64,000 bases of DNA from Nitrosarchaeum sp. (GCA_965223865.1 OZ245020.1:1792001-1856000); one strand, 5' to 3'. Counted from the first letter of the stretch, positions 13,982 through 26,845 are shown. The notes: a model not told the origin generated them from the letters alone. Program-made: numbers and translations.

Positions 13982-14635
13982 ATGATAGTTGATCTGAACC
14001 TCCAAGGTAAAAAAGTAATTATCATCGGAGGCGGAAATGAAGCACTAAAGAGAATAAATTCATTGTTAAAACAACAATGCGATGTATTTGTAATTAGCAG
14101 TAAAGTAAATTCTCAGATTATCAAACTAGCCGAATCTAAAATAATAAAATTAAAAAAAATGAATATGGCTAATGTATCTATTCTTTCTAAATACAAACCA
14201 CATGTAGTAATTACTACTACAGATGACAGAAAATTGAATCAGGAAATAATAGAGTATGGGAAAAAAAATAAAATTATTACGTATAGTTCAGATAATCCAG
14301 ATGATAGTGATTTTGCAAATCCTGCAGTAATAGATATTGAAAACATCATACAAATTGCAATTTTTACTGGTGGAAGGAGTCCAGTAATGTCAAAAAAGCT
14401 GAAAATAAAATTTGAAGAGATTTTTAAAAAATCCGTAACAAAGGAGGAAATTGATCAAATTAAAATTCAAAAGATCGTCAGGGAGTTAGCCAAAGACAGA
14501 ATATCCACTCAAAAAAAGAGAAAAGAAGTTCTAAGCAATATTATGGCTGATAATGAGATTGATCAGTTAATAAAAGACGGAAAATTGAAAAAAGCTGAAA
14601 AACGGGCAATTACAATATTGAGAGATTGGGAATGA
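13982..14635 (+). CDS. Precorrin-2 dehydrogenase (SirC / CysG N-terminal type)
   Basis: IIGGGNEA Rossmann motif, DF.NPA, IAIFTGGRSP. Confidence 0.88.
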   Translation: MIVDLNLQGKKVIIIGGGNEALKRINSLLKQQCDVFVISSKVNSQIIKLAESKIIKLKKMNMANVSILSKYKPHVVITTTDDRKLNQEIIEYGKKNKIITYSSDNPDDSDFANPAVIDIENIIQIAIFTGGRSPVMSKKLKIKFEEIFKKSVTKEEIDQIKIQKIVRELAKDRISTQKKRKEVLSNIMADNEIDQLIKDGKLKKAEKRAITILRDWE

Positions 14636-15894
14636 AGCAAAACATCATAAATGCAAGGGTAACTTTTCGTGGATCTCCAATTCATGTTTTAGAAAGATTT
14701 ACAATTAGAGATTTAGAGGGAGCATATGAACAATTTAAGAAACACTCAGGATTAGATGAGTGTGTAATTATTCAGACGTGTAACCGAATTGAATTGTTTG
14801 GAAAATCAAAGGAATGTAATGCTGAAAAGATCAAAAAGACATGGGCATCATTGACGGGTTTAGAGGAAGAAGCATTCAAAGATAATTTAGAATTAGTTGA
14901 AAATCAACAAGCATTTCATCATCTTCTAAAACTCACATCAGGATTAGATTCAATGGTACTTGGAGAAGAACAGATTTTAGGCCAAATTAAAAATTCCATC
15001 ACAGAGGCAAGAAGTATCAAAGCATCAGGTCAGCATCTCAATACTCTTTTTGACAAAGCAATTAGAATAGGAACACGAATTAGAAATACCAGCGGTATTG
15101 GGCGAGGAGGAATTTCTGTTGGTTCTATGGCAGTAAAATTAGCAGAAGAAAATATTGATGAGTTAAAATTTAAAAAAATATTACTGATTGGAACAGGAGA
15201 AGTTTCAACTCTTGTTGCAAAATCCCTTCAAAGAAGAGGATATGGTTTTTCAGTAACTAGCAGAACTCTTGAAAGATCGAAGGCATTTTGTGAAACAATG
15301 GGAGGAAAGCCAGTTAAATTTGAAGATGTTTTATCAGGATTTGAAAATTATGATGTACTTTTTGTAGCAACTACTGCACCATACTTTCTTGTAACATATG
15401 AAAGGATTACAAATGCCATGAAGGAAAAGAAAACAGGTATGATGATTTTGGATTTGTCAAACCCTAGAACAGTAGATGAAAAAGTAGCAACTATTGGAGG
15501 TATTAAATTAATGAATCTTGATCAAATTGCTGAAATGGTTGAAAAGAATATGAATGCACGATTAAACAAGGTAAAAACCGTTGAAAATATAATTAATGAA
15601 GAAGTATCAGTTCTAGAAGCCTCAATGAAAAGACTAGATGCCGAACCACTCGTTAAAGATGTTTTCAAAAACATAGACTCTCTTAGAATAAAAGAATTAC
15701 AAAAAGCACTGCATATGCTTGATGAAAAAGATGAGAAAAAAATCAAGATAATTGAAGAGTTAACAAAGGCAGTAGTAGAAAGTATAGTATCTACTCCCAT
15801 GAACAATATTAGAAAGGCATCTGAGCAAGGAGATCCTTATGTTATTGAAATGGCAAGCAAATTATTTGACTATAAAAAGAGTCAATTAGACTAG
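14626..15894 (+). CDS. hemA: Glutamyl-tRNA reductase
   Basis: TCNRIE, GLDSMVLGEEQILGQ. Confidence 0.97.
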   Translation: MGMKQNIINARVTFRGSPIHVLERFTIRDLEGAYEQFKKHSGLDECVIIQTCNRIELFGKSKECNAEKIKKTWASLTGLEEEAFKDNLELVENQQAFHHLLKLTSGLDSMVLGEEQILGQIKNSITEARSIKASGQHLNTLFDKAIRIGTRIRNTSGIGRGGISVGSMAVKLAEENIDELKFKKILLIGTGEVSTLVAKSLQRRGYGFSVTSRTLERSKAFCETMGGKPVKFEDVLSGFENYDVLFVATTAPYFLVTYERITNAMKEKKTGMMILDLSNPRTVDEKVATIGGIKLMNLDQIAEMVEKNMNARLNKVKTVENIINEEVSVLEASMKRLDAEPLVKDVFKNIDSLRIKELQKALHMLDEKDEKKIKIIEELTKAVVESIVSTPMNNIRKASEQGDPYVIEMASKLFDYKKSQLD

Positions 15895-15919
15895 GATTAT
15901 ATTTTACCCTAAAGGATTT

Positions 15920-16906
15920 TTGAGTATGTCTTTTCCTATGAGACGACTTCGTAGATTAAGAACTTCTTCAAAAATGAGGGAGTTGGTACAAGAGACTAGT
16001 TTATCACCAAGAGATTTCATTTGCCCAGTTTTTGTTCAAGAAGATCTAAAGACAAGAATTAAAGTAGAATCAATGTCAGAGATAGAACGATTGCCTCTTG
16101 AAGACATTAATGATGAGGTAGGAACAATTTCAGATTTAGGCATACCTGCAATTATGTTATTTGGAATTCCAAGTAACAAAGATGAAGCTGGTTCATCAGC
16201 ATTTGATGATAATGGAATTGTTCAAAAGGCAATTTCCCAGATTAGAAAAAACTTTGGAGATAAAATGGTGATTATGGCAGATGTATGTCTGTGTCAATTT
16301 ACATCAACAGGACACTGTGGAATTATTCAAGGAAATAAAATCGATAACGATACTAGTTTGGACACTTTAGCAAAAATAGCCGTAAGTCAGGCAAAAGCAG
16401 GTGTTGATACTGTCTCACCATCTGCAATGATGGATGGTCAAGTAGCTGCGATTAGAGAAGCTCTAGACGGTGAAGGGTTTACTGATGTATCTATAATGTC
16501 ACATTCAGCAAAACATCGTTCTGGGTTTTACTCACCTTTTAGAGATGCTGCGGAATGTGCACCAAAATTCGGAGACAGAAAAACATACCAAGTTCCTTTC
16601 ACAAATGCAAGAGAAGCCATGTTGGAAGTTCAAACTGATATCAATGAGGGGGTAGATATTGTAATGATTAAACCAGCTTTATCATATCTAGATCTTATTT
16701 CAGAAACTAGAAAGAGATTCGACGTTCCAGTTGCAGCATACAGTGTTTCAGGAGAATATGCATTAGTTAAAGGAGCAGCAAAACAAGGTTGGATTGATGA
16801 AAAGAACATCACAGAAGAAATACTATATTCCATTAAAAGAGCAGGTGCAGACATGATTGTGACATACTTTGCAAAATCAGCAGCAACATTTCTTCAAAAA
16901 TCATGA
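15920..16906 (+). CDS. hemB: Porphobilinogen synthase
   Basis: DVCLCQFT.TGHCG, PSAMMDG, MIKP, AYSVSGEY. Confidence 0.97.
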   Translation: MSMSFPMRRLRRLRTSSKMRELVQETSLSPRDFICPVFVQEDLKTRIKVESMSEIERLPLEDINDEVGTISDLGIPAIMLFGIPSNKDEAGSSAFDDNGIVQKAISQIRKNFGDKMVIMADVCLCQFTSTGHCGIIQGNKIDNDTSLDTLAKIAVSQAKAGVDTVSPSAMMDGQVAAIREALDGEGFTDVSIMSHSAKHRSGFYSPFRDAAECAPKFGDRKTYQVPFTNAREAMLEVQTDINEGVDIVMIKPALSYLDLISETRKRFDVPVAAYSVSGEYALVKGAAKQGWIDEKNITEEILYSIKRAGADMIVTYFAKSAATFLQKS

Positions 16907-17214
16907 GAAATGATGAAAGATTTGAGATAGAAAGGGCTTTTGACTTATTGCCTCATGTGGTTGGTTGTAGTTGGGCTACAATTTGGTTTAGAATGAATGG
17001 AAACAAAAGACCCACAAGAGAAGAATTCCGAGAAAAGACAATAGAATACTTCAAAGTAATTGATCCTATCTTTGATTCATACCCAAAAGAGGAAAAATTT
17101 CAGGCAATTCAAAAATACATTAATTTTAGAAGAGATGAAGAAATCAAAAAGATTACGAACGGATTAAACAAAGAGGTCGAAAAGAGATATGACAGATATG
17201 TGGATTATGGTTGA
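16903..17214 (+). CDS. Hypothetical protein
   Basis: 103 aa, ATGA-coupled to hemB. Confidence 0.75.
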   Translation: MRNDERFEIERAFDLLPHVVGCSWATIWFRMNGNKRPTREEFREKTIEYFKVIDPIFDSYPKEEKFQAIQKYINFRRDEEIKKITNGLNKEVEKRYDRYVDYG

Positions 17215-17257
17215 TTTACTGAAATTTTTGATTAAAAATAAAAGAGAAAAGAGTGAT

Positions 17258-18166
17258 CTATTGCTCCAAGTTTAATGGAATAGATGCACTTCCATACGGT
17301 TCAGAGATTCTAAAGACATAATCTTTTGAAGAATCATAGATGAATTGTGTTCCACCATATCCAATATTTGGACCAAACAACATGTTGAATATTGCAGACT
17401 CTCCAGATTTCAGAACAATTTGCCCATTTGTAAAATCCATGCCAGAATACTTGAATGCCTTTTCACCATTCCAAACATCATAGTTACATACAGCAGGACC
17501 AGTACACATCATGGAAATATTATCTGATGAGCCATTATTTTCAGCTAGCATTCTAATTGAAAGAATTGCCTGACCAGATGGAGAAATTTCAAATGAATTT
17601 CCTTCACTTCCAAGATCGGCCCAATAATAAGTCAATGGTCCTACTTGGAAAGACTGACCATTTGTTTTTATTTTGTAAGCTTCAATTTGATGCTCAGCTG
17701 CTTTTTCACAGTTTAGTCTAGGATATGCTTTAGTAATCTCAGAACATTTTTCAAGCTCTGTTTCAAGGGAAGCTAATTTTGAATCATTAGTTGCTGATTG
17801 CATTGGAGCTTCAACTACAGGTTCAGAAGTTGAAACAGAGACAATACCAGTTTTTATCAGATGTTGAATTCCGTTAACAAATTCACCATCAGAAATTGTT
17901 CCATCAGCCCACCATCCTGCATTGTTTTTTACCCAAGCTGGTACACCTTCAGACGATTCAGCAGATACTGTTGTTGGAGGAACTACAATAATACCATCTT
18001 CTATAAGGAATTGAATCCCTTGTACAAATTCTGATTCAGAAATTGTTCCATCAGCCCACCATCCTGCATTGTTTTTTACCCAAGCTGGTACTTCTTCAGC
18101 ACTTGCAAAAGAAGTAATTGATCCTACTAAGAGAATTGCTGCAATTGTGGTTATTGTGGTTTTCAT
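17258..18166 (-). CDS. Secreted protein with two thaumarchaeal VPAWVKNNAGWW modules and a C-terminal beta-rich domain
   Basis: Signal peptide ending ASA, two ~49-aa repeats, Cys pairs. Confidence 0.85.
   Translation of the reverse strand: MKTTITTIAAILLVGSITSFASAEEVPAWVKNNAGWWADGTISESEFVQGIQFLIEDGIIVVPPTTVSAESSEGVPAWVKNNAGWWADGTISDGEFVNGIQHLIKTGIVSVSTSEPVVEAPMQSATNDSKLASLETELEKCSEITKAYPRLNCEKAAEHQIEAYKIKTNGQSFQVGPLTYYWADLGSEGNSFEISPSGQAILSIRMLAENNGSSDNISMMCTGPAVCNYDVWNGEKAFKYSGMDFTNGQIVLKSGESAIFNMLFGPNIGYGGTQFIYDSSKDYVFRISEPYGSASIPLNLEQ
17889..18091. repeat. Intragenic direct repeat of 56 identical bp (17889-17944 and 18036-18091)
   Basis: tcagaaattgttccatcagcccaccatcctgcattgttttttacccaagctggtac occurs twice, 147 bp apart. 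Confidence 0.9.
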
Positions 18167-18188
18167 TAACGTGTTTTTCCATTCATAA

Positions 18189-18224
18189 TATTTAAGCTGG
18201 TGCCAATAATTTGTCTAGTGCTAA
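18189..18224 (-). promoter_or_regulatory. Promoter with TTAGCACTA box (secreted protein gene)
   Basis: Minus strand TTAGCACTA-N20-TTAAATA; second copy TTGGCACCA inside the spacer. Confidence 0.7.
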
Positions 18225-18250
18225 ATTTTAAAAGAAATTGTAAAAATATC

Positions 18251-18288
18251 TAGTGGTAAACAAAATTTTCCATATTGGGCTTTTTATG
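18251..18288 (+). promoter_or_regulatory. Promoter with inverted box (DUF1722 gene)
   Basis: TAGTGGTAA-N21-TTTTTATG. Confidence 0.5.
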
Positions 18289-18310
18289 TAATCAACATCA
18301 AATTTGAAAA

Positions 18311-18868
18311 GTGAAGGAAAAGCAAGAATATTCCAATGTAGGATTGCCTGTTATTTCTGAGGATGATGTTAAAAATTATGTATTTGAGAGATTTGAAGAC
18401 GTTAAAAGGTTAAAAAAAATCAAAAATCTCGTGAATTTTCAGGCTATGAATAAGTACATGATAATGGCCCATAACCAAGAGCAACTCAAAAAGCTAGGAA
18501 ACATTGTAGCTAGTTATAAAAAAATCCCCTTTTCAGAAATTTTAGAGAGTTATGAAGAAAATCTAAGAATTGCTCTAAAGAAAAAACCAACCAAGAAAAT
18601 GCATACAAATGTAATTATGCATATTTTTGGACATTTTTCAAAAAAATTGAATCAATCTGATAAAGAATTGTTTTTTCAGTTATTAGAAGAATATAGAAAA
18701 GAAAAGATCAGCTTAGGAGATATTCTTGTAGAAATAAATCCAGTCATATTTAGATTCAACAATACCTATCTAGCTAGTCAGACCTACTTTTTATTATATT
18801 CAAACATTATTCCAGGAATTCCATTTCAATCTCTCAATAATGAAAACGTCATAAAGGATCTAAATTAA
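18311..18868 (+). CDS. DUF1722 (YbgA C-terminal-like) protein
   Basis: LV.FQA.NKY.IMAH....K.LG, H.NV.MH.FG.F, YL..QTY. Confidence 0.85.
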   Translation: MKEKQEYSNVGLPVISEDDVKNYVFERFEDVKRLKKIKNLVNFQAMNKYMIMAHNQEQLKKLGNIVASYKKIPFSEILESYEENLRIALKKKPTKKMHTNVIMHIFGHFSKKLNQSDKELFFQLLEEYRKEKISLGDILVEINPVIFRFNNTYLASQTYFLLYSNIIPGIPFQSLNNENVIKDLN

Positions 18869-18893
18869 AAAAAATAGCAAAAAATAAAATCCA

Positions 18894-18929
18894 TTAGCAC
18901 TATAAAATATAGTTAGCATTAGTTATATA
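18894..18929 (+). promoter_or_regulatory. Promoter with TTAGCACTA box (B12-binding regulator gene)
   Basis: TTAGCACTA-N20-TTATATA; second copy TTAGCATTA inside the spacer. Confidence 0.7.
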
Positions 18930-18950
18930 GTTTAATGAAACAAAAAATTC

Positions 18951-19793
18951 ATGGTATACATTAGAGCAAAGAAAGTAAAATCTGATCAATATCTTTATCT
19001 TGTCAAAAGTGTGTGGGATTCTCAGAAAAATACATCAAAACAAGAAATAATCAAGTATTTAGGAAAAGCATCTGATGTTGTAAAAGATGATATTCCTTCA
19101 GATTACAGAAATGATTCTAAAATATTATCTGTGTTGGCAAAATTTAATCCTAAAGATATTAAAAAAAGAGAAGATGCATCAAAAAAATCAAAACAGCAAC
19201 TATTTAAAAAATTAACAGAAGGAGATATTCAGGCTTCACTAAAGATCTATCAGGAATATACCAAAATTTTTGATACTCCAGATTTTTTTGATAAAATTCT
19301 AAAACCAGTAATGTATAAGATTGGAGACGATTGGGCTACTGGTAAAATCAGTATTGCAACAGAGCATGTAGCAAGTAATGTTGCACAAACCCTTGTTAAA
19401 ATTATAATGGATCAAGTTACTGGAAATGCCAACAAAAAGAAAGTCTTAATTTGTGTTCCTCTTGGAGAGGAACATCATCTTGGTTGTGACGTACTAGAAA
19501 CATATCTTTCAATTAAAGGATTCAAAGTATACAACATGGGAACATCAATGCCCACGGAATCTATTTTGAATTTCATCGATAACAACAATCCTGATGTAGT
19601 ACTATTATCAATAACCTTGGAGGATAATCTATCAGCAGGACAACGACTTGTAAGAAAGATCAAAGAACGATTTAACATTCCAATTTTGGTTGGCGGTTTT
19701 GCAATAGAGGGAGAAAATATCCCAAAGTTTGATGCAAAAATAATACCAAAATCATCACTAGAAGAAATCCCCAAGTTGATTAGAACAGCATAG
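18951..19793 (+). CDS. Cobalamin-binding protein with CarH/AerR-type photoreceptor signature and N-terminal basic beta-sheet domain
   Basis: Helix-bundle motif W-ATGKISIAT-EH (W-x9-EH); Rossmann EEHHLG (ExHxxG), LSIT, LVGG. Confidence 0.85.
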   Translation: MVYIRAKKVKSDQYLYLVKSVWDSQKNTSKQEIIKYLGKASDVVKDDIPSDYRNDSKILSVLAKFNPKDIKKREDASKKSKQQLFKKLTEGDIQASLKIYQEYTKIFDTPDFFDKILKPVMYKIGDDWATGKISIATEHVASNVAQTLVKIIMDQVTGNANKKKVLICVPLGEEHHLGCDVLETYLSIKGFKVYNMGTSMPTESILNFIDNNNPDVVLLSITLEDNLSAGQRLVRKIKERFNIPILVGGFAIEGENIPKFDAKIIPKSSLEEIPKLIRTA

Positions 19794-19801
19794 TTTATTT
19801 C

Positions 19802-21136
19802 TTATTTTTTTAAATAAGATTGTATTTTAGGCATGCAAAGAATAGAGCTATGGGCTGCTGAATCAGTACCTATTCCGTAACTAATAGTAGAATCCCCTAC
19901 AAAAAACAACCCCTTAATGCTAGGAATTTCATGTGGCATTTTTGATTTCCATACCAATCCAGGTTCTTTTACAACTGATTCCACAAGATTCCAAGCCATT
20001 GGGCGTTCCCAAAGTAGTGATTCCTCAAATTGAGGGTAAATCGAAGAGATTTCTTTTTTCATTGTATTTACGATCATACGTATTTGTTTTGGATCATCAG
20101 TGACAGAGGGATCTACTGGAGTTCCAGCAATTATCAAATGTTCTCCCGGAGGAGAAACTGATGAAGTAATGTTTGAAATGAAAAAAATTCCTTTTGTAGT
20201 ATAATTATCACCGACTGGAAAAACTACTTGTCTTGTATCAAGTTGAGATTTTAAGGCAAAATGAACCTCTACTACTGCAGTTTTTTTGTTTAACTTGTTT
20301 ATCTCTTTTACAAATTTTTCATCAAATACATCTCTGTCAAACAATTGATTAATTGCCATGTAAGCAGGGTAAGAAATCACAACACAGTTTGTCGGAATAA
20401 AATCATTACTGTTTGTTACTATTCCTGTTACTTTAGAATTTTCAATAATAATTTTTTTTACAGAGCAGTTTAGCTCAACATTACCATCATTTTCTTCAAT
20501 GTATTGGGCCAAAATTTTTGAAATTGAATCATATCCACCGTCTTCAGGATAAGCAAATTCACTTGTTCCTCCTTTGAAAGGATTGGCACGGATTATTGTC
20601 CTTGCAAATTCACCTAAAGAAATATGATCAACAGTATCAGCAAAAGCCAACATGCATACTGCCTCAAAAAATGCATTTGTTTCAGGATCTAATTTGGAAG
20701 TTATTTCTTTTAGAGAAAGGTTATCCCATTCTTCTGTTTTTTCAATGGAGGTAAAAGCCATCGGGAGAAGTACTTTCAAAAGTTTGATTCTACTTTTTAA
20801 TGGAATCAGAGAAAGGCGTAAAAGGTCATTCATTCCTTTAGGATATTTGTGAAATCCTGAATCAGAATGAAAGGCAATATTGTCAACTTTGGCAAGTTTT
20901 AGTTTTGATTCAATTTCTAATGATTTTAAAACAGTGAAAATTGCAGATTTTTTGTAAAAGGGCATAATATGAAAGCCATTATCTAGAATATGGTTTTTAA
21001 ATTTCATAGAGGCAGTTCTGCCACCTAATTTTGAGGATTTTTCAATAATTCTTACAGGATGTCCTTTTTGTGCAAGCATAGCACCTGTGGTTAGTCCACC
21101 CACTCCTGCTCCAATAATGTAAATGGGTTCCCTCAT
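19802..21136 (-). CDS. FAD-dependent oxidoreductase, phytoene desaturase/amine oxidase superfamily
   Basis: IIGAGVGGL..EK...LGGR, DNGFH, YP.DGG...I, GLFFVGD. Confidence 0.88.
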   Translation of the reverse strand: MREPIYIIGAGVGGLTTGAMLAQKGHPVRIIEKSSKLGGRTASMKFKNHILDNGFHIMPFYKKSAIFTVLKSLEIESKLKLAKVDNIAFHSDSGFHKYPKGMNDLLRLSLIPLKSRIKLLKVLLPMAFTSIEKTEEWDNLSLKEITSKLDPETNAFFEAVCMLAFADTVDHISLGEFARTIIRANPFKGGTSEFAYPEDGGYDSISKILAQYIEENDGNVELNCSVKKIIIENSKVTGIVTNSNDFIPTNCVVISYPAYMAINQLFDRDVFDEKFVKEINKLNKKTAVVEVHFALKSQLDTRQVVFPVGDNYTTKGIFFISNITSSVSPPGEHLIIAGTPVDPSVTDDPKQIRMIVNTMKKEISSIYPQFEESLLWERPMAWNLVESVVKEPGLVWKSKMPHEIPSIKGLFFVGDSTISYGIGTDSAAHSSILCMPKIQSYLKK

Positions 21137-21157
21137 GAATAATTTTTTATTTTTTTC

Positions 21158-21194
21158 TATTTATGCAGGTGCCAAATAATTTACATAGTGCTAA
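21158..21194 (-). promoter_or_regulatory. Promoter with TTAGCACTA box (FAD oxidoreductase gene)
   Basis: Minus strand TTAGCACTA-N21-ATAAATA; second copy TTGGCACCT inside the spacer. Confidence 0.7.
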
Positions 21195-21644
21195 CTATTT
21201 GGACAAATTATAAGAATTAAATTTCTCAGTAGATTTAATAAACTGATCCATTACTGAACTCATCTGATTTGCAAGATAATCTTCTAAGAATCCAAATAAC
21301 TTGAAAAATCCATTTAATCTTAATCTTACATCAATTGAAATAACTGTTCCATCATCAGATTTTACATATGACTCTACAAATACAGTCCCCTTAGTAGGCC
21401 CACTAAGAATATAGATTTCGTGATTTGAGGGTTTTTTAATTACATGTTTTGTTTTTATTTTTAGGGGAATTCCAAGAAATTTTATTTTTTCTAAAACAAT
21501 TTTTTCATTCTTTGTTTGTCTAATGATTTTTAATGATTTAAAATAATCAGGCATTACCTGATGAAAATTTTCGACATCAGTACTTAAATGAAATATTCTT
21601 TCTTGAGATAATGAAGAATTTCTCGTTAGAGTAAAATGTTTCAT
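21195..21644 (-). CDS. SRPBCC/START-fold (polyketide cyclase-like) protein
   Basis: IF.L.TDVEN..Q.MP pattern, GPTKG, C-terminal helix. Confidence 0.75.
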   Translation of the reverse strand: MKHFTLTRNSSLSQERIFHLSTDVENFHQVMPDYFKSLKIIRQTKNEKIVLEKIKFLGIPLKIKTKHVIKKPSNHEIYILSGPTKGTVFVESYVKSDDGTVISIDVRLRLNGFFKLFGFLEDYLANQMSSVMDQFIKSTEKFNSYNLSK

Positions 21645-21647
21645 ATC

Positions 21648-21824
21648 TTAATCACTATTTTCAGATAATGAGAAATTTGTTTGTATATTTTCAAGGTTAT
21701 TGTAATTACTTTTTTTGATTTTCAAGCGAACTAAGGATGAAAGACAAACGTTCAGTTTTTTTGGATTTTCATCAGAATTCAAATTTTTTGTAGATTGGGA
21801 CAGGAAAGACAATTCAGTAATCAT
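21648..21824 (-). CDS. Putative 58-aa microprotein
   Basis: ATG 21824 to TAA 21648, directly upstream of SRPBCC, behind a boxed promoter; low complexity. Confidence 0.35.
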   Translation of the reverse strand: MITELSFLSQSTKNLNSDENPKKLNVCLSSLVRLKIKKSNYNNLENIQTNFSLSENSD

Positions 21825-21840
21825 ACTTTTTTGTTTTTAG

Positions 21841-21876
21841 TATTTATGAAGAAAAGAAATTATTTCATAGTGCCAA
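21841..21876 (-). promoter_or_regulatory. Promoter with TTGGCACTA box (microprotein-SRPBCC unit)
   Basis: Minus strand TTGGCACTA-N20-ATAAATA. Confidence 0.65.
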
Positions 21877-21909
21877 TAATTTGTTATTGTATTAATATTT
21901 AGGAGCGAA

Positions 21910-21945
21910 TTAGCACTAGATTATAATTTTTAGGACATTAAAATA
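21910..21945 (+). promoter_or_regulatory. Promoter with TTAGCACTA box (21968/22133 unit)
   Basis: TTAGCACTA-N19-TTAAAATA. Confidence 0.62.
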
Positions 21946-21967
21946 TCTTAAAAAAGAAAAACAAGCT

Positions 21968-22123
21968 ATGGAAGAAAATCTTTCAATTTCATATGGAGTT
22001 GAATCAGGTTATGCGATGATTGAGAATAAAGAGTTTGGTTTGATTGAAAACATCTCAAAGGTGTTATCTAAAGTAAGAGAACTTGAGAGCCAAACAGCAA
22101 TAGTAATTCAAGTCTCAGGATAA
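21968..22123 (+). CDS. Putative 51-aa microprotein (MEENLSISYGVESG...)
   Basis: ATG 22 bp after a TATA box; protein-like composition; 9 bp before the next ORF. Confidence 0.55.
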   Translation: MEENLSISYGVESGYAMIENKEFGLIENISKVLSKVRELESQTAIVIQVSG

Positions 22124-22132
22124 AAAACTAAA

Positions 22133-22363
22133 ATGAGTAAATTAAAACCATATAGACCAAGCATCATAACAGCATTTGGAGTAATCTTTTTGATTTCAGC
22201 AATAATTATTCCAATTCAAAATTTGATTGTGTGGGGTCCAGATTTTGTGATGGAGTTTTACACATCGTCTCAAATAACTTCAGAGAAAATATCAATTGGA
22301 GTGATTGCATTTGGTCTTGCATTAATTTTGATAGGTTATAAAAAGCAAGTCTATGTTGAATAG
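22133..22363 (+). CDS. Small membrane protein (2 TM)
   Basis: Two hydrophobic segments in 76 aa. Confidence 0.7.
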   Translation: MSKLKPYRPSIITAFGVIFLISAIIIPIQNLIVWGPDFVMEFYTSSQITSEKISIGVIAFGLALILIGYKKQVYVE

Positions 22364-22374
22364 AAGTTTAATAA

Positions 22375-22410
22375 TTACCACTAGTTACAAAAACAAATCT
22401 GGCTTAAATA
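22375..22410 (+). promoter_or_regulatory. Promoter with TTACCACTA box upstream of the second tfb
   Basis: TTACCACTA-N20-TTAAATA. Confidence 0.6.
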
Positions 22411-22589
22411 ATTTTAAAACCAAATTTAATTATGATAGTAAAATCATCTTACCAAGAAAAAAACAGAAATTCATTAGTATATGTAAATTCTAAAATCAAA
22501 ATTTGTATTAATTATAGTAATTACAAAATAAAATTTCATGAGTTTGGAGTATCCTGTAAATATTATGGAGAACCATTTTGGAGGATAAA

Positions 22590-23495
22590 ATGTTAACCGA
22601 ACTTGTGCATCAACAAAATTGCAACAAAAATAAAATAATTACAGATTTAGATACTGGGGAAATTGCATGTAGTAATTGTGGTGCAGTATCACATGAAAAA
22701 CCAATTGAATTTGGACCAGAAATTTCTGGAATTACAAAAGAAGAATATCTTAAAACATCTCGAGTTGGAAGGAAAATTTCATTAAAAATAGCCGATATGG
22801 GCTTATCGACAATAATAGAGTCACAAGATAAGGATGCTACTGGAAAGTACTTATCAAAAGAGAATCGTAGAATGTTTTATCGCCTTCGTATGTGGGATAG
22901 AAATAGTCGTTCTGCAAATACTGTAAAATCATTGCAAAAAGCATTTCTTTTACTTGATGGAATTAGAGCAAAACTTAATCTTCCTGAACCAGTTGTAGAA
23001 CATACAGCCTATCTTTTTAGAAAAATTTCAGCAAAAAAAATTCTTAGCGGCAGAACTACTTCAGGAATTCTTTGTGCTACAGTGTACATTGCATGTAGAT
23101 TAACAAACACACCTAGAACCATACAAGATGTTGCCGATGCTGGAAATATCAAAAGAAAAAACTTACAGAGAATTTACAGATTTTTAATAAAAGAGCTAAA
23201 CATCTTTCCTAATGCATATAATCCACATGAATTTATTACAAGAATTTCAAAAACTATTAGCATTTCAGAAAAAACAGAAAGACTTGCATTTAACATTGTT
23301 TTGTTGACAGAAAAAATAGGAATATCTACAAGCAAGAATCCAATGGCAATGGCAGCAGCATCTATTCATTTGGCATCCTTGAAAAATAATGAAAAAGTTT
23401 CACAATTAAAAATTTCAGAGGCATCAGGTATAAGTGCTGTAACAATTAGGGATCGAGCAAAAGAGATCAAAGAAAGATTAGGAGGTGAAATTTAG
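22590..23495 (+). CDS. tfb: Transcription factor IIB paralog (alternative TFB)
   Basis: Zn ribbon (C..CSNCG), RLRMWD, cyclin repeats, GISAVTIRDR; GGAGG RBS before ATG 22590. Confidence 0.92.
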   Translation: MLTELVHQQNCNKNKIITDLDTGEIACSNCGAVSHEKPIEFGPEISGITKEEYLKTSRVGRKISLKIADMGLSTIIESQDKDATGKYLSKENRRMFYRLRMWDRNSRSANTVKSLQKAFLLLDGIRAKLNLPEPVVEHTAYLFRKISAKKILSGRTTSGILCATVYIACRLTNTPRTIQDVADAGNIKRKNLQRIYRFLIKELNIFPNAYNPHEFITRISKTISISEKTERLAFNIVLLTEKIGISTSKNPMAMAAASIHLASLKNNEKVSQLKISEASGISAVTIRDRAKEIKERLGGEI

Positions 23496-23677
23496 TGGGA
23501 AGAACATGTAGAGGTATTTGCCAAATGCACAAAGCCGAACCTGTTCCAAATAAACTCAGATATGAAGTTGGTCAGAAGCGATGTACGTTTTGTGGAATAT
23601 TTATGTCAGTTGAAGATACTAGATGTATTTGTTGCAAGGCAGTCCTAAGAACAAAGGCAAGAGGGAAAAAGAATTAG
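23495..23677 (+). CDS. Cys-rich small protein (Zn-binding)
   Basis: Cx3C, CxxC, CxCC; GGAGGTGA RBS; overlaps the tfb stop. Confidence 0.8.
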   Translation: MGRTCRGICQMHKAEPVPNKLRYEVGQKRCTFCGIFMSVEDTRCICCKAVLRTKARGKKN

Positions 23678-24294
23678 ATTTCGTTTTTTAGTTCAGAGAG
23701 AAAATTTTTCATAATTCTAGTTCTCCTTTTGGCCTCAATTTTAGCAGATTTTGTGTTCATTAAAGATTCTAATTTCAATAGTTTCTGATAGAAATGATCC
23801 AGAGTCCAATTTTTGTCATCAGCTGTCCGTTTTTTACAAAATGGGTCTTTTTTGTTGTAAAATGATCGTTTTTCTGATCCTCCAACGGCAAAAACTCTAG
23901 CAATTCCTATTGCACCAATTGCATCTAGCCTATCTGCATCTTGAAGTATTTTTCCTTCTAAAGTTTGCGGAGTTTTTCCTCTAGAAAAACTATGATCACG
24001 AATTGCATCTGAGATTATTCTAAGTTCTTTAGAAGAATAGCCTAAATTTTTTAGAATCTTTTTTGCTTCTTGGGCACTCTTTATTGATGAAAGTTTTGAG
24101 CGCGGGTCTGATTTAGGGTAGGAGATGATATCATGTAATAATACTGCACTTAGCACAAGTTTTTCATTTGCTTTTTCTTTTTTGCATAATTTCTGTGCGT
24201 TTTTGTATACTCTCATAACATGATTAAAATCATGGGCAGAATCATTTTTCATTCTTTGCTGCACTTGTTTTTGTAGTAAATCAACAGAATCCAT
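23674..24294 (-). CDS. HD-domain phosphohydrolase
   Basis: AHD..HV.RV, LLHDI, QDADRLDAIGAIG. Confidence 0.92.
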   Translation of the reverse strand: MDSVDLLQKQVQQRMKNDSAHDFNHVMRVYKNAQKLCKKEKANEKLVLSAVLLHDIISYPKSDPRSKLSSIKSAQEAKKILKNLGYSSKELRIISDAIRDHSFSRGKTPQTLEGKILQDADRLDAIGAIGIARVFAVGGSEKRSFYNKKDPFCKKRTADDKNWTLDHFYQKLLKLESLMNTKSAKIEAKRRTRIMKNFLSELKNEI

Positions 24295-24930
24295 TTAGAA
24301 TCTCCAGAGTTTTGGTTTGACAAATTTGATTTTTCTTTGTGTTATTAAGAGCGACCAGTTAATGGATGCAAAAAGCACTATTACTCCAACACCAACTCCA
24401 TCTACAAGTAAAATTCCTGTAAGTCTATCTTCAAAAATTTCGAGGAATGGTTGTAAAACGGCATTTCCAAAATATATCATTACAATATATGACAAGAATC
24501 GTCCAAACCAAAATCCAATGTAAATACCAATACTTTTTGCCCTCATTAAACCATATGTGATAAAAAGCATGTTACTGGGAAGAGGAGTTGCACCAAAAAG
24601 AAAAGATGCAATCAAATATCCAAATTTTTTTTGATTTAGGTAATCTCCAATAATATCAAGATTTGATTTTTGTTCTTTTCCTACAAATCTTCTAAAAAGA
24701 CTACTAATTCTTTTCAGCAAAAATCTACCTATTGTTGCAGCAGTAGCTCCAACCATTGCAAGTGAGATAATATTCAAACTAGGATCAAGTAGGTAAAAAG
24801 AAGTCAATATGATCCAGCTTGGTGGCATCAGAATTGGGGCAACATTTACTCCAAATAATACAAGAAAAATACCTACATAGGACCATTCTGCAAAGATTTC
24901 AAAAATATCTGCCATCTTTTGATTAATCAA
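24295..24930 (-). CDS. DedA/VTT-like membrane protein
   Basis: Multiple TM segments, GA.AATIG, ATPLPS. Confidence 0.7.
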   Translation of the reverse strand: MINQKMADIFEIFAEWSYVGIFLVLFGVNVAPILMPPSWIILTSFYLLDPSLNIISLAMVGATAATIGRFLLKRISSLFRRFVGKEQKSNLDIIGDYLNQKKFGYLIASFLFGATPLPSNMLFITYGLMRAKSIGIYIGFWFGRFLSYIVMIYFGNAVLQPFLEIFEDRLTGILLVDGVGVGVIVLFASINWSLLITQRKIKFVKPKLWRF

Positions 24931-25894: not shown

Positions 25895-26845
25895 TTATTT
25901 TCGAGTTTTTTTCTTTGTAGCTACTTTCTTTGCTGGTTTCTTTGTAGCTACTTTCTTTGCTGGTTTCTTTGTAGCTACTTTCTTTGCTGGTTTCTTTGTA
26001 GCTACTTTCTTTGCTGGTTTCTTTGTAGCTACTTTCTTTGCTGGTTTCTTTGTAGCTACTTTCTTTGCTGGTTTCTTTGTAGCTACTTTCTTTGCTGGTT
26101 TCTTTGTAGCTACTTTCTTTGCTGGTTTCTTTGTAGCTACTTTCTTTGCTGGTTTCTTTGTAGCTACTTTCTTTGCTGGTTTCTTTGTAGCTACTTTCTT
26201 TGCTGGTTTCCTCTTAAGATAATCTTGAAGCCGTTTTGTGGCTCTTTCGAGAGCCTTTTTAGCAGATTCCTCTGCTCTTGACCTTCTTTCAAGTTCTACT
26301 GCAAGTTTTTGGACCTCTTTATGACTTGAGGCCATTTTTTCTCTCAAAGCAGGTTTTGAATGAGTCTGTTTTTGGATTTTGGAAGTAATTGTCGATTTTA
26401 TATTACTGAATTTGGCAATATCATCAGAAATCTTTTTAGCAGTTTTTGTTCTATTTTTTATCTCAAGTTCTAGTTCTTGAACATGATCTTTGAGGGATCT
26501 TAATCTCGATTCGGCATACCCTTTTTCTTCAGGATTATCAGCAAATTCAATTTCTTGTTCGGCTTGAGCGATTGCATCTTTTTCAAGGGTTAATCGTTCC
26601 TTAGCAGTAGAGATTAATCTTTCAATGCTTTCTATTTGAGCATTTTTTTGAACAAGAGTTTCAGAAACATCTGATGCATCTTCTTTTTGAGATTCAATTT
26701 TTTTCTCTATGGTGTTTAATCCTGAGGATGATCTTCTTTCAAGAGATTTGTATTCTTTTAATTGCTTTTCAGCTTTATTTTTTAATCTAGTAGCTTCTCG
26801 TTTCTTTTTTCTTAGATCATTAACTAATTTTTCTAGAGTTACCAA
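25895..26845 (-). CDS. Coiled-coil protein with histone H1-like Lys/Ala/Pro C-terminal tail
   Basis: ~210-aa heptad-rich region followed by (KPAKKVATK)x11. Confidence 0.85.
25911..26210. repeat. Perfect 27-bp coding tandem repeat, ~11 copies
   Basis: Unit ttctttgtagctactttctttgctggt, no spacers. Confidence 0.97.

Follow-up and report, generated by a model that had tools for sequence, protein, structure and literature searches.

The DNA under study is a 64-kb stretch (G000:C1:1792001-1856000, hereafter the window, with positions counted from its first base) of the 2,012,789-base, 99.98% complete genome of a Nitrosarchaeum species, and has a G+C content of ~33%. Within the window, a compact block of genes and promoters surrounds the gene for B12R, a 280-aa protein (18951-19793, + strand) that contains B12-binding_2 and B12-binding domains and is a candidate photoreceptor-regulator. 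An earlier note on this DNA had proposed that B12R is the sensor of an archaeal cobalamin (B12) photosensor circuit, and this proposal gains support, at the level of computation, from the CarH motifs of the protein, its matches to solved structures, its gene neighborhood and the co-occurrence of the gene with a shared promoter box. The position of every gene that the note had named around the B12-binding protein has been confirmed.

On one side of the regulator gene, the block begins with SECR (17258-18166, − strand), a 302-aa, apparently secreted protein with an N-terminus that resembles a signal peptide by eye and two ~35-aa repeats. SECR matches no Pfam or NCBIfam family, yielding weak DUF4352-type leads only, and falls into its own Nitrososphaerota cluster of 2,244 members (Atlas). 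It is followed by a YbgA-like DUF1722 gene (18311-18868, + strand; PF08349, 1.1e-35, covering profile positions 1-116 of 117). On the other side lie DESAT (19802-21136, − strand), an FAD amine-oxidase and CrtI-HpnE-like flavoprotein (PF01593, 2.1e-29) whose NCBIfam matches are all far below their cut-offs, and a gene for a weakly SRPBCC-like protein (21195-21644, − strand; Polyketide_cyc 5.6e-4, 20.6 bits versus a cut-off of 23.4 bits). Two short open reading frames (ORFs), one of 51 aa (21968-22123, + strand) and one encoding a 76-aa membrane microprotein (22133-22363, + strand), precede the gene for an alternative TFB paralogue (22578-23495, + strand; TFIIB repeats in two stretches, 3.3e-29). 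The scores of this TFB, 28.0 bits for Zn_Ribbon_TF against a 29-bit cut-off and 251 bits (1.3e-74) for PRK00423 against a 384-bit cut-off, are consistent with a divergent paralogue. Its stop codon is overlapped by the start of CYS60, which encodes a Cys-rich, zinc-ribbon-like protein of 60 aa (23495-23677, + strand). The block is flanked upstream by tetrapyrrole genes (siroheme-synthase-like, hemA and hemB; 13982-16906) and downstream by genes for an HD hydrolase and a membrane protein.

The putative sensor module and N-terminal head of B12R

The B12R protein is composed of a β-sheet head (residues 1-45), a four-helix bundle (residues 67-156) and a Rossmann B12-binding module (residues 164-280) that includes His175. 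A regular-expression search places the Wx9EH motif, which caps the adenosyl group, in the four-helix bundle at residues 128-139, and the pattern ExHx2G-x41-SxT-x22-27-GG is found with full spacing at residues 173-249. These correspond to the two motifs by which CarH homologues are defined in the accessible sections of two articles, Wx9EH and D/ExHx2G/P-x41-SxT/V-x22-27-GG, the latter containing the lower axial His (PMC9304148, PMC8156234); the same sections of the first describe Wx9EH as distinguishing adenosylcobalamin (AdoCbl) photoreceptors from the B12-independent CarA (PMC9304148). Across 30 aligned orthologues of 35-84% identity, the residues G172, E173, H175, G248 and G249 do not vary, and W128, E138 and H139 are at least 90% conserved.

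Family and structure searches point in the same direction. The best NCBIfam model for B12R is CarH, aligned over residues 78-272 only, and the nine best matches in a sequence-profile search of the PDB are all B12 photoreceptors (1.3e-23 to 8e-15), with MetH next at 2.7e-14. An AlphaFold2 model of the protein has a mean predicted local distance difference test score (pLDDT) of 88.3, and its comparison with the PDB by Foldseek returns, in all top ranks, Thermus CarH/LitR B12 domains, photocobilins and a Chloracidobacterium MerR-family B12 domain, with E-values from 9e-12. The CarH/LitR B12-domain matches (9e-12 to 4e-10) reach a template-modeling score of 0.5 on the target with a root-mean-square deviation of ~13.6 Å, a high value that probably reflects a different pose of the two subdomains in the cofactor-free model. 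The genome also encodes a PduO-type adenosyltransferase (1.8e-55), in line with a capacity to make AdoCbl. In public databases, B12R itself is named "cobalamin-dependent protein," "response regulator receiver," "histidine kinase," "methionine synthase" or "MtbC1." A role for B12R as a methyltransferase corrinoid protein (MtbC/MtaC/MtgC) was considered and rejected, as the corresponding NCBIfam models score 28-47 bits against cut-offs of 215-450 (46.8 against 215 for the pyl_corrinoid model). No methyltransferase family was found by Pfam and NCBIfam searches among the 13 neighboring proteins, and the MetH of this genome is a separate protein of ~837 aa.

Two further types of protein resemble parts of B12R. 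A 91-aa protein (L035:6956-7231, − strand; G000:C1:1432956-1433231) comprises nothing beyond the four-helix bundle found in the B12 module (B12-binding_2, 1.5e-4), is 51% identical to B12R residues 78-157, and has, by eye, a Leu in place of the Wx9EH Trp; encoded first in a Usp-photolyase operon of the same genome, it could modulate the sensor. A second, divergent paralogue of the regulator, with 39% identity, is present in two relatives (L065:9551-10411, − strand, on G126:C12; and G102:C92:5140-5964). It keeps the N-terminal domain and lacks Wx9EH, in which it recalls the myxobacterial B12-independent CarA, and a helix-bundle-only gene adjoins it.

The N-terminal head is the best-conserved part of the protein over residues 1-40, and 13 invariant columns fall within the first 49 of the 30-sequence alignment. 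It is predicted, both alone and in context, to adopt a three-stranded antiparallel β-sheet with a short helix after it, at a pLDDT above 90. Neither a MerR winged helix nor any Pfam family was found on residues 1-66, even at E ≤ 10, and a profile search gave no PDB sequence match to the head. A profile search of 1.84 billion representative sequences found the head module in 632 clusters at E ≤ 0.001, and the module is always N-terminal in its carriers. The 30 matches of varied length that were scanned comprise a DDE transposase, three HNH endonucleases, an AbiEii nucleotidyltransferase, five B12-domain proteins and 20 proteins without a family assignment. The transposase, AbiEii (a toxin-type protein) and HNH carriers are P0242, P0247, P0239, P0267 and P0223, and the module also begins many proteins of 160-185 aa without a known family. 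By its N-terminal profile, B12R is the sole carrier of the head domain in this genome. We infer that the head is a portable DNA-targeting domain of ~45 residues. It is a candidate for a new DNA-binding fold, with no convincing match to a solved fold.

The shared promoter box and its occurrence in relatives

The transcription units of the block share a promoter box in which a 10-mer (consensus TTAGCACTAG) is directly repeated at a period of 18-20 bp (~19), the second repeat abutting a TATA-like TTTAAATA. Four copies of the exact TAGTGCTAA are present in the window, all of them intergenic and within the block. Taken alone, the exact 9-mer of the box is not enriched genome-wide (18 copies versus ~25 expected from composition); only its clustering and its bipartite form are informative. 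A strict bipartite pattern has three matches in the genome, all in the block, and none in the reversed control, while a degenerate pattern that includes the TATA box has seven (control 0), three in the block and four at C1:1434790-1441751. A looser two-repeat scan of the genome, tried as a means of extending the regulon, proved too noisy (77 sites versus 37 in the reversed control), and the stricter pattern was used instead. The single promoter box that the earlier note had described is therefore real and non-random.

Six transcription units have a first repeat ~29 nt before a TATA-like box, namely those of SECR, B12R, DESAT, the SRPBCC leader, the 51/76-aa pair and the TFB-CYS60 leader, and the DUF1722 gene shares the divergent SECR operator. 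In the operator/promoter of B12R itself (18894-18930, + strand), the first repeat (18894-18903) is followed by the second (18913-18922) and a TATA-like box (18923-18930), and the distance from the beginning of the first repeat to the start codon is 57 nt. The divergent SECR/DUF1722 control region (18188-18259, − strand) contains a third repeat (18250-18259) in addition to the first (18215-18224), the second (18197-18206) and the TATA-like box (18188-18195); here the SECR start codon is 58 nt from the start of the first repeat, and the three-repeat layout is also found in loci L056-L064 and L070. The same distance of 58 nt separates the first repeat from the start codon of DESAT, whose operator/promoter (21157-21194, − strand) consists of a first repeat at 21185-21194, a second at 21166-21175 and a TATA-like box at 21157-21164, and from that of the 51-aa ORF, where the operator/promoter of the 51-aa/76-aa unit (21910-21945, + strand) pairs a first repeat (21910-21919) with a weak second one (21930-21939). 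The second repeat is degenerate at the two remaining promoters, that of the SRPBCC leader (21840-21876, − strand; first repeat 21867-21876, TATA-like box 21840-21847), the layout of which recurs upstream of c134 in L056, L059, L062 and L070, and that of TFB-CYS60 (22375-22411, + strand; first repeat 22375-22384, TATA-like box 22404-22411). The earlier note had placed a second TFB and its Cys-rich partner under the box. The TFB-CYS60 operon does have one, with a degenerate second repeat, but its position is ~200 nt upstream of the TFB gene and not at the gene start.

This geometry is maintained well beyond the present genome. A neighborhood comparison of 35 loci from 34 genomes, in which a gene was counted if it lay within 9 kb of the regulator, found the operator conserved in all 35 loci and across many genera. 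Counted back from the start codon, the first repeat begins at 55-61 nt for B12R, SECR, DESAT, c61, c194, c127, CYS60 and the 51-aa ORF. It falls between −55 and −59 for 26 of 32 SECR copies and 10 of 12 DESAT copies, and at −56 to −64 for the regulator gene in 23 of the 35 loci. For TFB, EPIM and PyrOx2, the box is found 45-323 nt before the start (TFB 45-243, mostly ~200, in 8 of 13 copies; EPIM 72-301; PyrOx2 69-323). The control neighbors hemB, HD, w211TM and w103 have no box sites, and in the present genome the box is absent from the flanking genes on both sides of the block. If the mRNAs are leaderless, the repeats would fall at about −57 and −38, and the TATA box at about −28. By eye, the boxed promoters have no obvious purine-rich TFB-recognition element (BRE).

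The box also follows the regulator from genome to genome. Full-length B12R orthologues (E ≤ 1e-30) are encoded in 89 of the 201 genomes of a family panel that includes this one, whereas matches at ~1e-10 are MetH, and in a wider phylum panel of 251 genomes (E ≤ 1e-25) the regulator is found in 22 of 34 genomes of its own family and in none of 216 genomes from 41 other families. Genomes with the regulator (n = 89) contain a mean of 2.78 box sites against 0.58 in the control, while those without it (n = 111) contain 0.30 against 0.25, with one genome, G038, omitted from this count. The contrast is repeated within all eight genera tabulated (for example, 10/10 versus 0/6 in g13, and 9/9 versus 1/7 in g17); related genomes are not independent, and thus no p-value is given. 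The family tallies include three genomes flagged as unpublished (G077, G092 and G093), whose rows have neither a regulator match nor a box site. In G038 (C1:1499973-1500332), a regulator fragment with an in-frame TAG is all that is left of the gene and three box sites remain, possibly a regulon in decay.

The genes of the block accompany the regulator to different degrees. Its most constant neighbor is SECR (31 of 35 loci), followed by CYS60 (21), DUF1722 (17), DESAT (11) and the SRPBCC-like gene (9, mostly in the order c134-SRPBCC-DESAT), while the 76-aa and 51-aa ORFs are conserved in seven and two loci, respectively. TFB orthologues (E ≤ 1e-85) are present in 36 of the 201 genomes, of which 33 also have the regulator, which bears out the association of the second TFB with this system that the earlier note had made. 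Of the microproteins in that note, the 58-aa ORF (21648-21824), downstream of the SRPBCC-leader promoter, lacks a tblastn match at all 35 related loci and probably does not represent a gene. A 54-aa ORF (22432-22596, + strand) in the ~200-nt leader that separates TFB from its boxed promoter has tblastn matches in seven loci at 30-65% identity; it may encode a small protein, but conservation of the leader DNA alone could also account for the matches. An Rfam scan of 16900-24400, which includes the TFB leader, gave no matches at E ≤ 0.1. In L059 (7900-9059; G030), the flavoprotein gene beside the regulator matches as two overlapping pieces of 94% and 67% identity, which suggests that it is frameshifted or disrupted in this close relative. 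Farther downstream in the window, a 316-aa coiled-coil-like protein (25895-26845, − strand) ends in ~13 tandem copies of the 9-residue unit KKPAKKVAT, and a separate 21-bp tandem array is located at G000:C1:1738545-1738755.

A second boxed island (L035), located through the clustering of exact 9-mers, lies 350 kb from the block. It includes an apparent operon of the 91-aa helix-bundle protein, a Usp and a photolyase, together with a second Usp, an NmrA-like reductase, PNPOx-like proteins, a truncated TFB-like protein and several unknowns. A 210-aa protein with an adenylate/guanylate-cyclase domain (2.6e-10; L035:3117-3749, + strand) is encoded at its edge. In other genera, the genes of both islands are joined beside the regulator (L043, L054, L062 and L064). 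The photolyase gene directly follows the regulator gene in L039 and follows DUF1722 in tandem in L062 and L064; overall, photolyase is found near the regulator in 6 of the 35 loci and EPIM in 17. Across the family panel, photolyase (PF03441) is present in 28 genomes, 26 of which have the regulator, and in 18 both are on one contig, ~10 kb apart or less. The neighborhood comparison thus ties B12R to the genes among which the earlier note had found it, and to photolyase as well. Co-occurrence of these genes in relatives, on which the earlier note had let its proposal depend, is thereby seen, and the computational checks that the note had suggested all favor its proposal.

The photolyase link bears on what B12R may sense. 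One alternative is that the protein responds to corrinoid supply or redox instead of light and adjusts its genes to the availability of the cofactor. The sequence of a B12 domain alone cannot separate the two functions, and the profile-search scores of MetH and corrinoid proteins are close behind those of CarH; moreover, the tetrapyrrole genes lie directly upstream of the block, and hemB-w103-SECR synteny is found in five loci. However, hemB has no box site, no gene for cobalamin synthesis, cobalamin transport or a B12 enzyme is seen among the regulon members, and the regulon is tied to photolyase. In addition, the Wx9EH motif retained by B12R is the feature that, in the sections of PMC9304148 available, marks AdoCbl photoreceptors as opposed to B12-independent CarA. 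Sensing of corrinoid supply or redox is accordingly regarded as improbable.

Proposed mechanism of light-dependent regulation

The reading preferred here, to which a probability of roughly 0.7 is assigned, is that B12R is a light-sensing transcription factor in which a CarH-type AdoCbl module is joined to a new kind of N-terminal DNA-binding domain, and that it represses the boxed promoters in the dark. According to this model, AdoCbl-bound B12R would oligomerize in the dark through its B12 domains, with the N-terminal domains facing the same way and docking on two, or sometimes three, direct 10-bp repeats ~19 bp apart. The TFB protein normally contacts the DNA directly upstream of the TATA box. 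Since the promoter-proximal repeat occupies this very site, its occupation by B12R would block transcription of the leaderless mRNAs. Light would then cleave the Co-C bond, the oligomer would dissociate and the promoters would open. Modeling of two full-length B12R copies without the cofactor gave a complex score of 0.05, compared with a mark of 0.42, which weighs neither for nor against such an oligomer. We infer AdoCbl binding, light sensitivity, binding of B12R to the box and the sign of regulation, the binding of the box from the co-occurrence of box and regulator. The regulon would comprise the regulator and about a dozen units in two islands, and its gene content suggests a photoprotective module, most members of which have no known function.

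Several observations weigh against this reading. The head has no established DNA-binding fold, as Foldseek against the PDB returns no match at E ≤ 0.001 and a VIA-align comparison with 48,161 chains gives a best Z of 4.9 (5mmm_w, a chloroplast-ribosome entry) and a Z of 2.5 for an integrase arm-type domain, all matches being below the stated noise level of the tool. The lead of photoreceptors over MetH in the PDB profile search is modest, and in this genome no clear box accompanies the photolyase operon itself. Among the 89 regulator genomes, 14 have no pattern match, most of them from distant genera in which divergent but recognizable boxes are present. Lastly, genome G073, which is 99% complete in 120 contigs, has photolyase, a TFB paralogue and two well-formed boxes flanking the latter (C89:83891-85475), yet the regulator was found in it neither with the whole protein nor with the N-terminal profile. 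G073 belongs to the same genus, and its case reflects an assembly gap or else a true exception. The N-terminal profile likewise found no regulator in four further exception genomes (G185, G107, G009 and G140), while the positive control in the home genome worked.

The G073 genome also raises the question of whether the box is read by another factor, such as the TFB paralogue or a zinc-ribbon protein of the islands, with B12R remaining off the DNA as an AerR-like partner or anti-repressor. Both boxes in G073 are perfect, proteins resembling TFB and zinc-ribbon proteins are encoded in both islands, the second repeat occupies the site expected of a BRE, and the N-terminal fold of B12R is unassigned. 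The TFB paralogue of the block, however, cannot be what defines the box: it has orthologues in only 36 of the 201 genomes and none in genus g20 (16 genomes), 11 of whose 12 regulator genomes have boxes, and a TFB-BRE contact would leave the distal repeat, 19 bp upstream, unexplained. The CYS60 family, whose members are ~60 aa long, Cys-rich and basic-tailed, was rejected as the binder at the level of the family because it is found in 201 of 201 genomes irrespective of boxes; this genome alone has 20 matches, several of them clustered at C1:1573444-1576308. The N-terminal module, for its part, is also carried by a transposase and HNH endonucleases and is as well conserved as the operator. A different box-binding factor is thus considered about as improbable as a corrinoid-supply sensor.

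The direction of regulation is a separate matter, as the site directly upstream of the TATA box is also used by archaeal activators and the sign is not settled. B12R could bind the repeats as an activator that recruits TBP and TFB just upstream of the TATA box, the light-exposed form being the active one. The repeats do lie upstream of and abutting the TATA box and not over the start site, and the apparent lack of a purine-rich BRE could make these promoters dependent on an activator. Set against this, the DNA binding of CarH requires the intact AdoCbl-bound oligomer, which light destroys, according to the sections of PMC8156234 available; a CarH-type activator would therefore turn photolyase-linked genes off in the light. 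The proximal repeat, moreover, fills the BRE position, which favors occlusion. Activation by B12R appears slightly less probable still than the two alternatives above, and repression in the dark is most likely, by analogy with CarH and from the position of the proximal repeat.

A more far-reaching version of the preferred reading, in which we have about even confidence, is that B12R is the first archaeal photoreceptor transcription factor. A bacterial-type AdoCbl sensor would here be mounted on a new β-sheet fold common to transposases and HNH endonucleases and would switch a light regulon at TATA/BRE promoters. The regulon would include its own TFB, giving a light-triggered feed-forward change of promoter specificity, and the truncated bundle paralogue would be a possible tuner. 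The presence or absence of the system within genera would then be a genetic determinant of the tolerance of marine ammonia oxidizers to sunlit water. Light inhibits ammonia-oxidizing archaea and thereby shapes where nitrification occurs in the ocean. If the model is true, B12 photoreception would be extended to Archaea and to TBP/TFB-type transcription, and the ~45-residue head would be a new DNA-binding module that could find uses elsewhere. With a sensor, an operator and a regulon all defined, the way in which these archaea perceive light becomes open to direct tests on specific promoters and on a protein that is small and soluble. Such a compact, light-controlled DNA binder might also serve as a tool at archaeal or eukaryote-like promoters, and the presence or absence of the gene within a genus could be an ecological marker in surveys.

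Relation to known B12 photoreceptors

The earlier note had stated that no archaeal equivalent has been characterized, and the literature searched, which leaves most subscription journals outside, likewise yielded no description of an archaeal B12 photoreceptor; none is described in the portion of PMC6908642 available. The photolyase of ammonia oxidizers is treated, in the available parts of two articles, only as an adaptation to surface water, and no regulator is named there (PMC13591554, PMC6593220).

Among known proteins, photocobilins and other B12 photoreceptor domains (PDB 8j2x, 8j2w and 8jbs) are the best profile matches to B12R residues 79-257 (1.3e-23 to 1.9e-19). They differ in possessing C-terminal bilin-binding or other output modules, an extension that B12R lacks, and in having no N-terminal β-sheet domain. 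AerR and other stand-alone B12 light sensors share the B12-binding fold (7te2, 3.4e-12). AerR has no DNA-binding domain and acts via a partner repressor, whereas in B12R a conserved N-terminal domain is fused to the sensor; the 91-aa helix-bundle-only paralogue shows that stand-alone pieces, as with AerR, exist in this genome too. The succession of B12-binding_2 and B12-binding domains is an architecture that B12R also has in common with MtbC/MtaC corrinoid proteins and the B12 domains of MetH. For the gene content of the regulon, the ybgA-phr arrangement of E. coli and bacterial singlet-oxygen regulons may be comparable cases.

The closest parallel is with the class I CarH/LitR proteins of Thermus thermophilus, Myxococcus xanthus and Bacillus megaterium, which are AdoCbl-dependent light-sensing repressors. 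B12R has the same two-subdomain B12 module with both motifs, and the CarH/LitR proteins are its closest solved folds. The two systems are also alike in having a direct-repeat operator at the promoter, a regulator gene that is itself boxed, and clustering with light-protection genes including photolyase. The direct repeats bound by the CarH tetramer likewise overlap the promoter (PMC8156234, section 10), and CarH homologues are described in the accessible text of the same article as spread across bacterial taxa. They differ in that the head of B12R is predicted to be a three-stranded β-sheet in place of the MerR winged helix, the operator consists of 10-bp repeats with a ~19-bp period instead of tandem 11-mers, and the promoters are of the archaeal TATA/BRE type with leaderless mRNAs, as opposed to sigma-A promoters. 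The host is an archaeon, and no carotenoid genes are involved. Because it has no MerR head, B12R stands outside the CarH family, though it would be CarH-like in its working.

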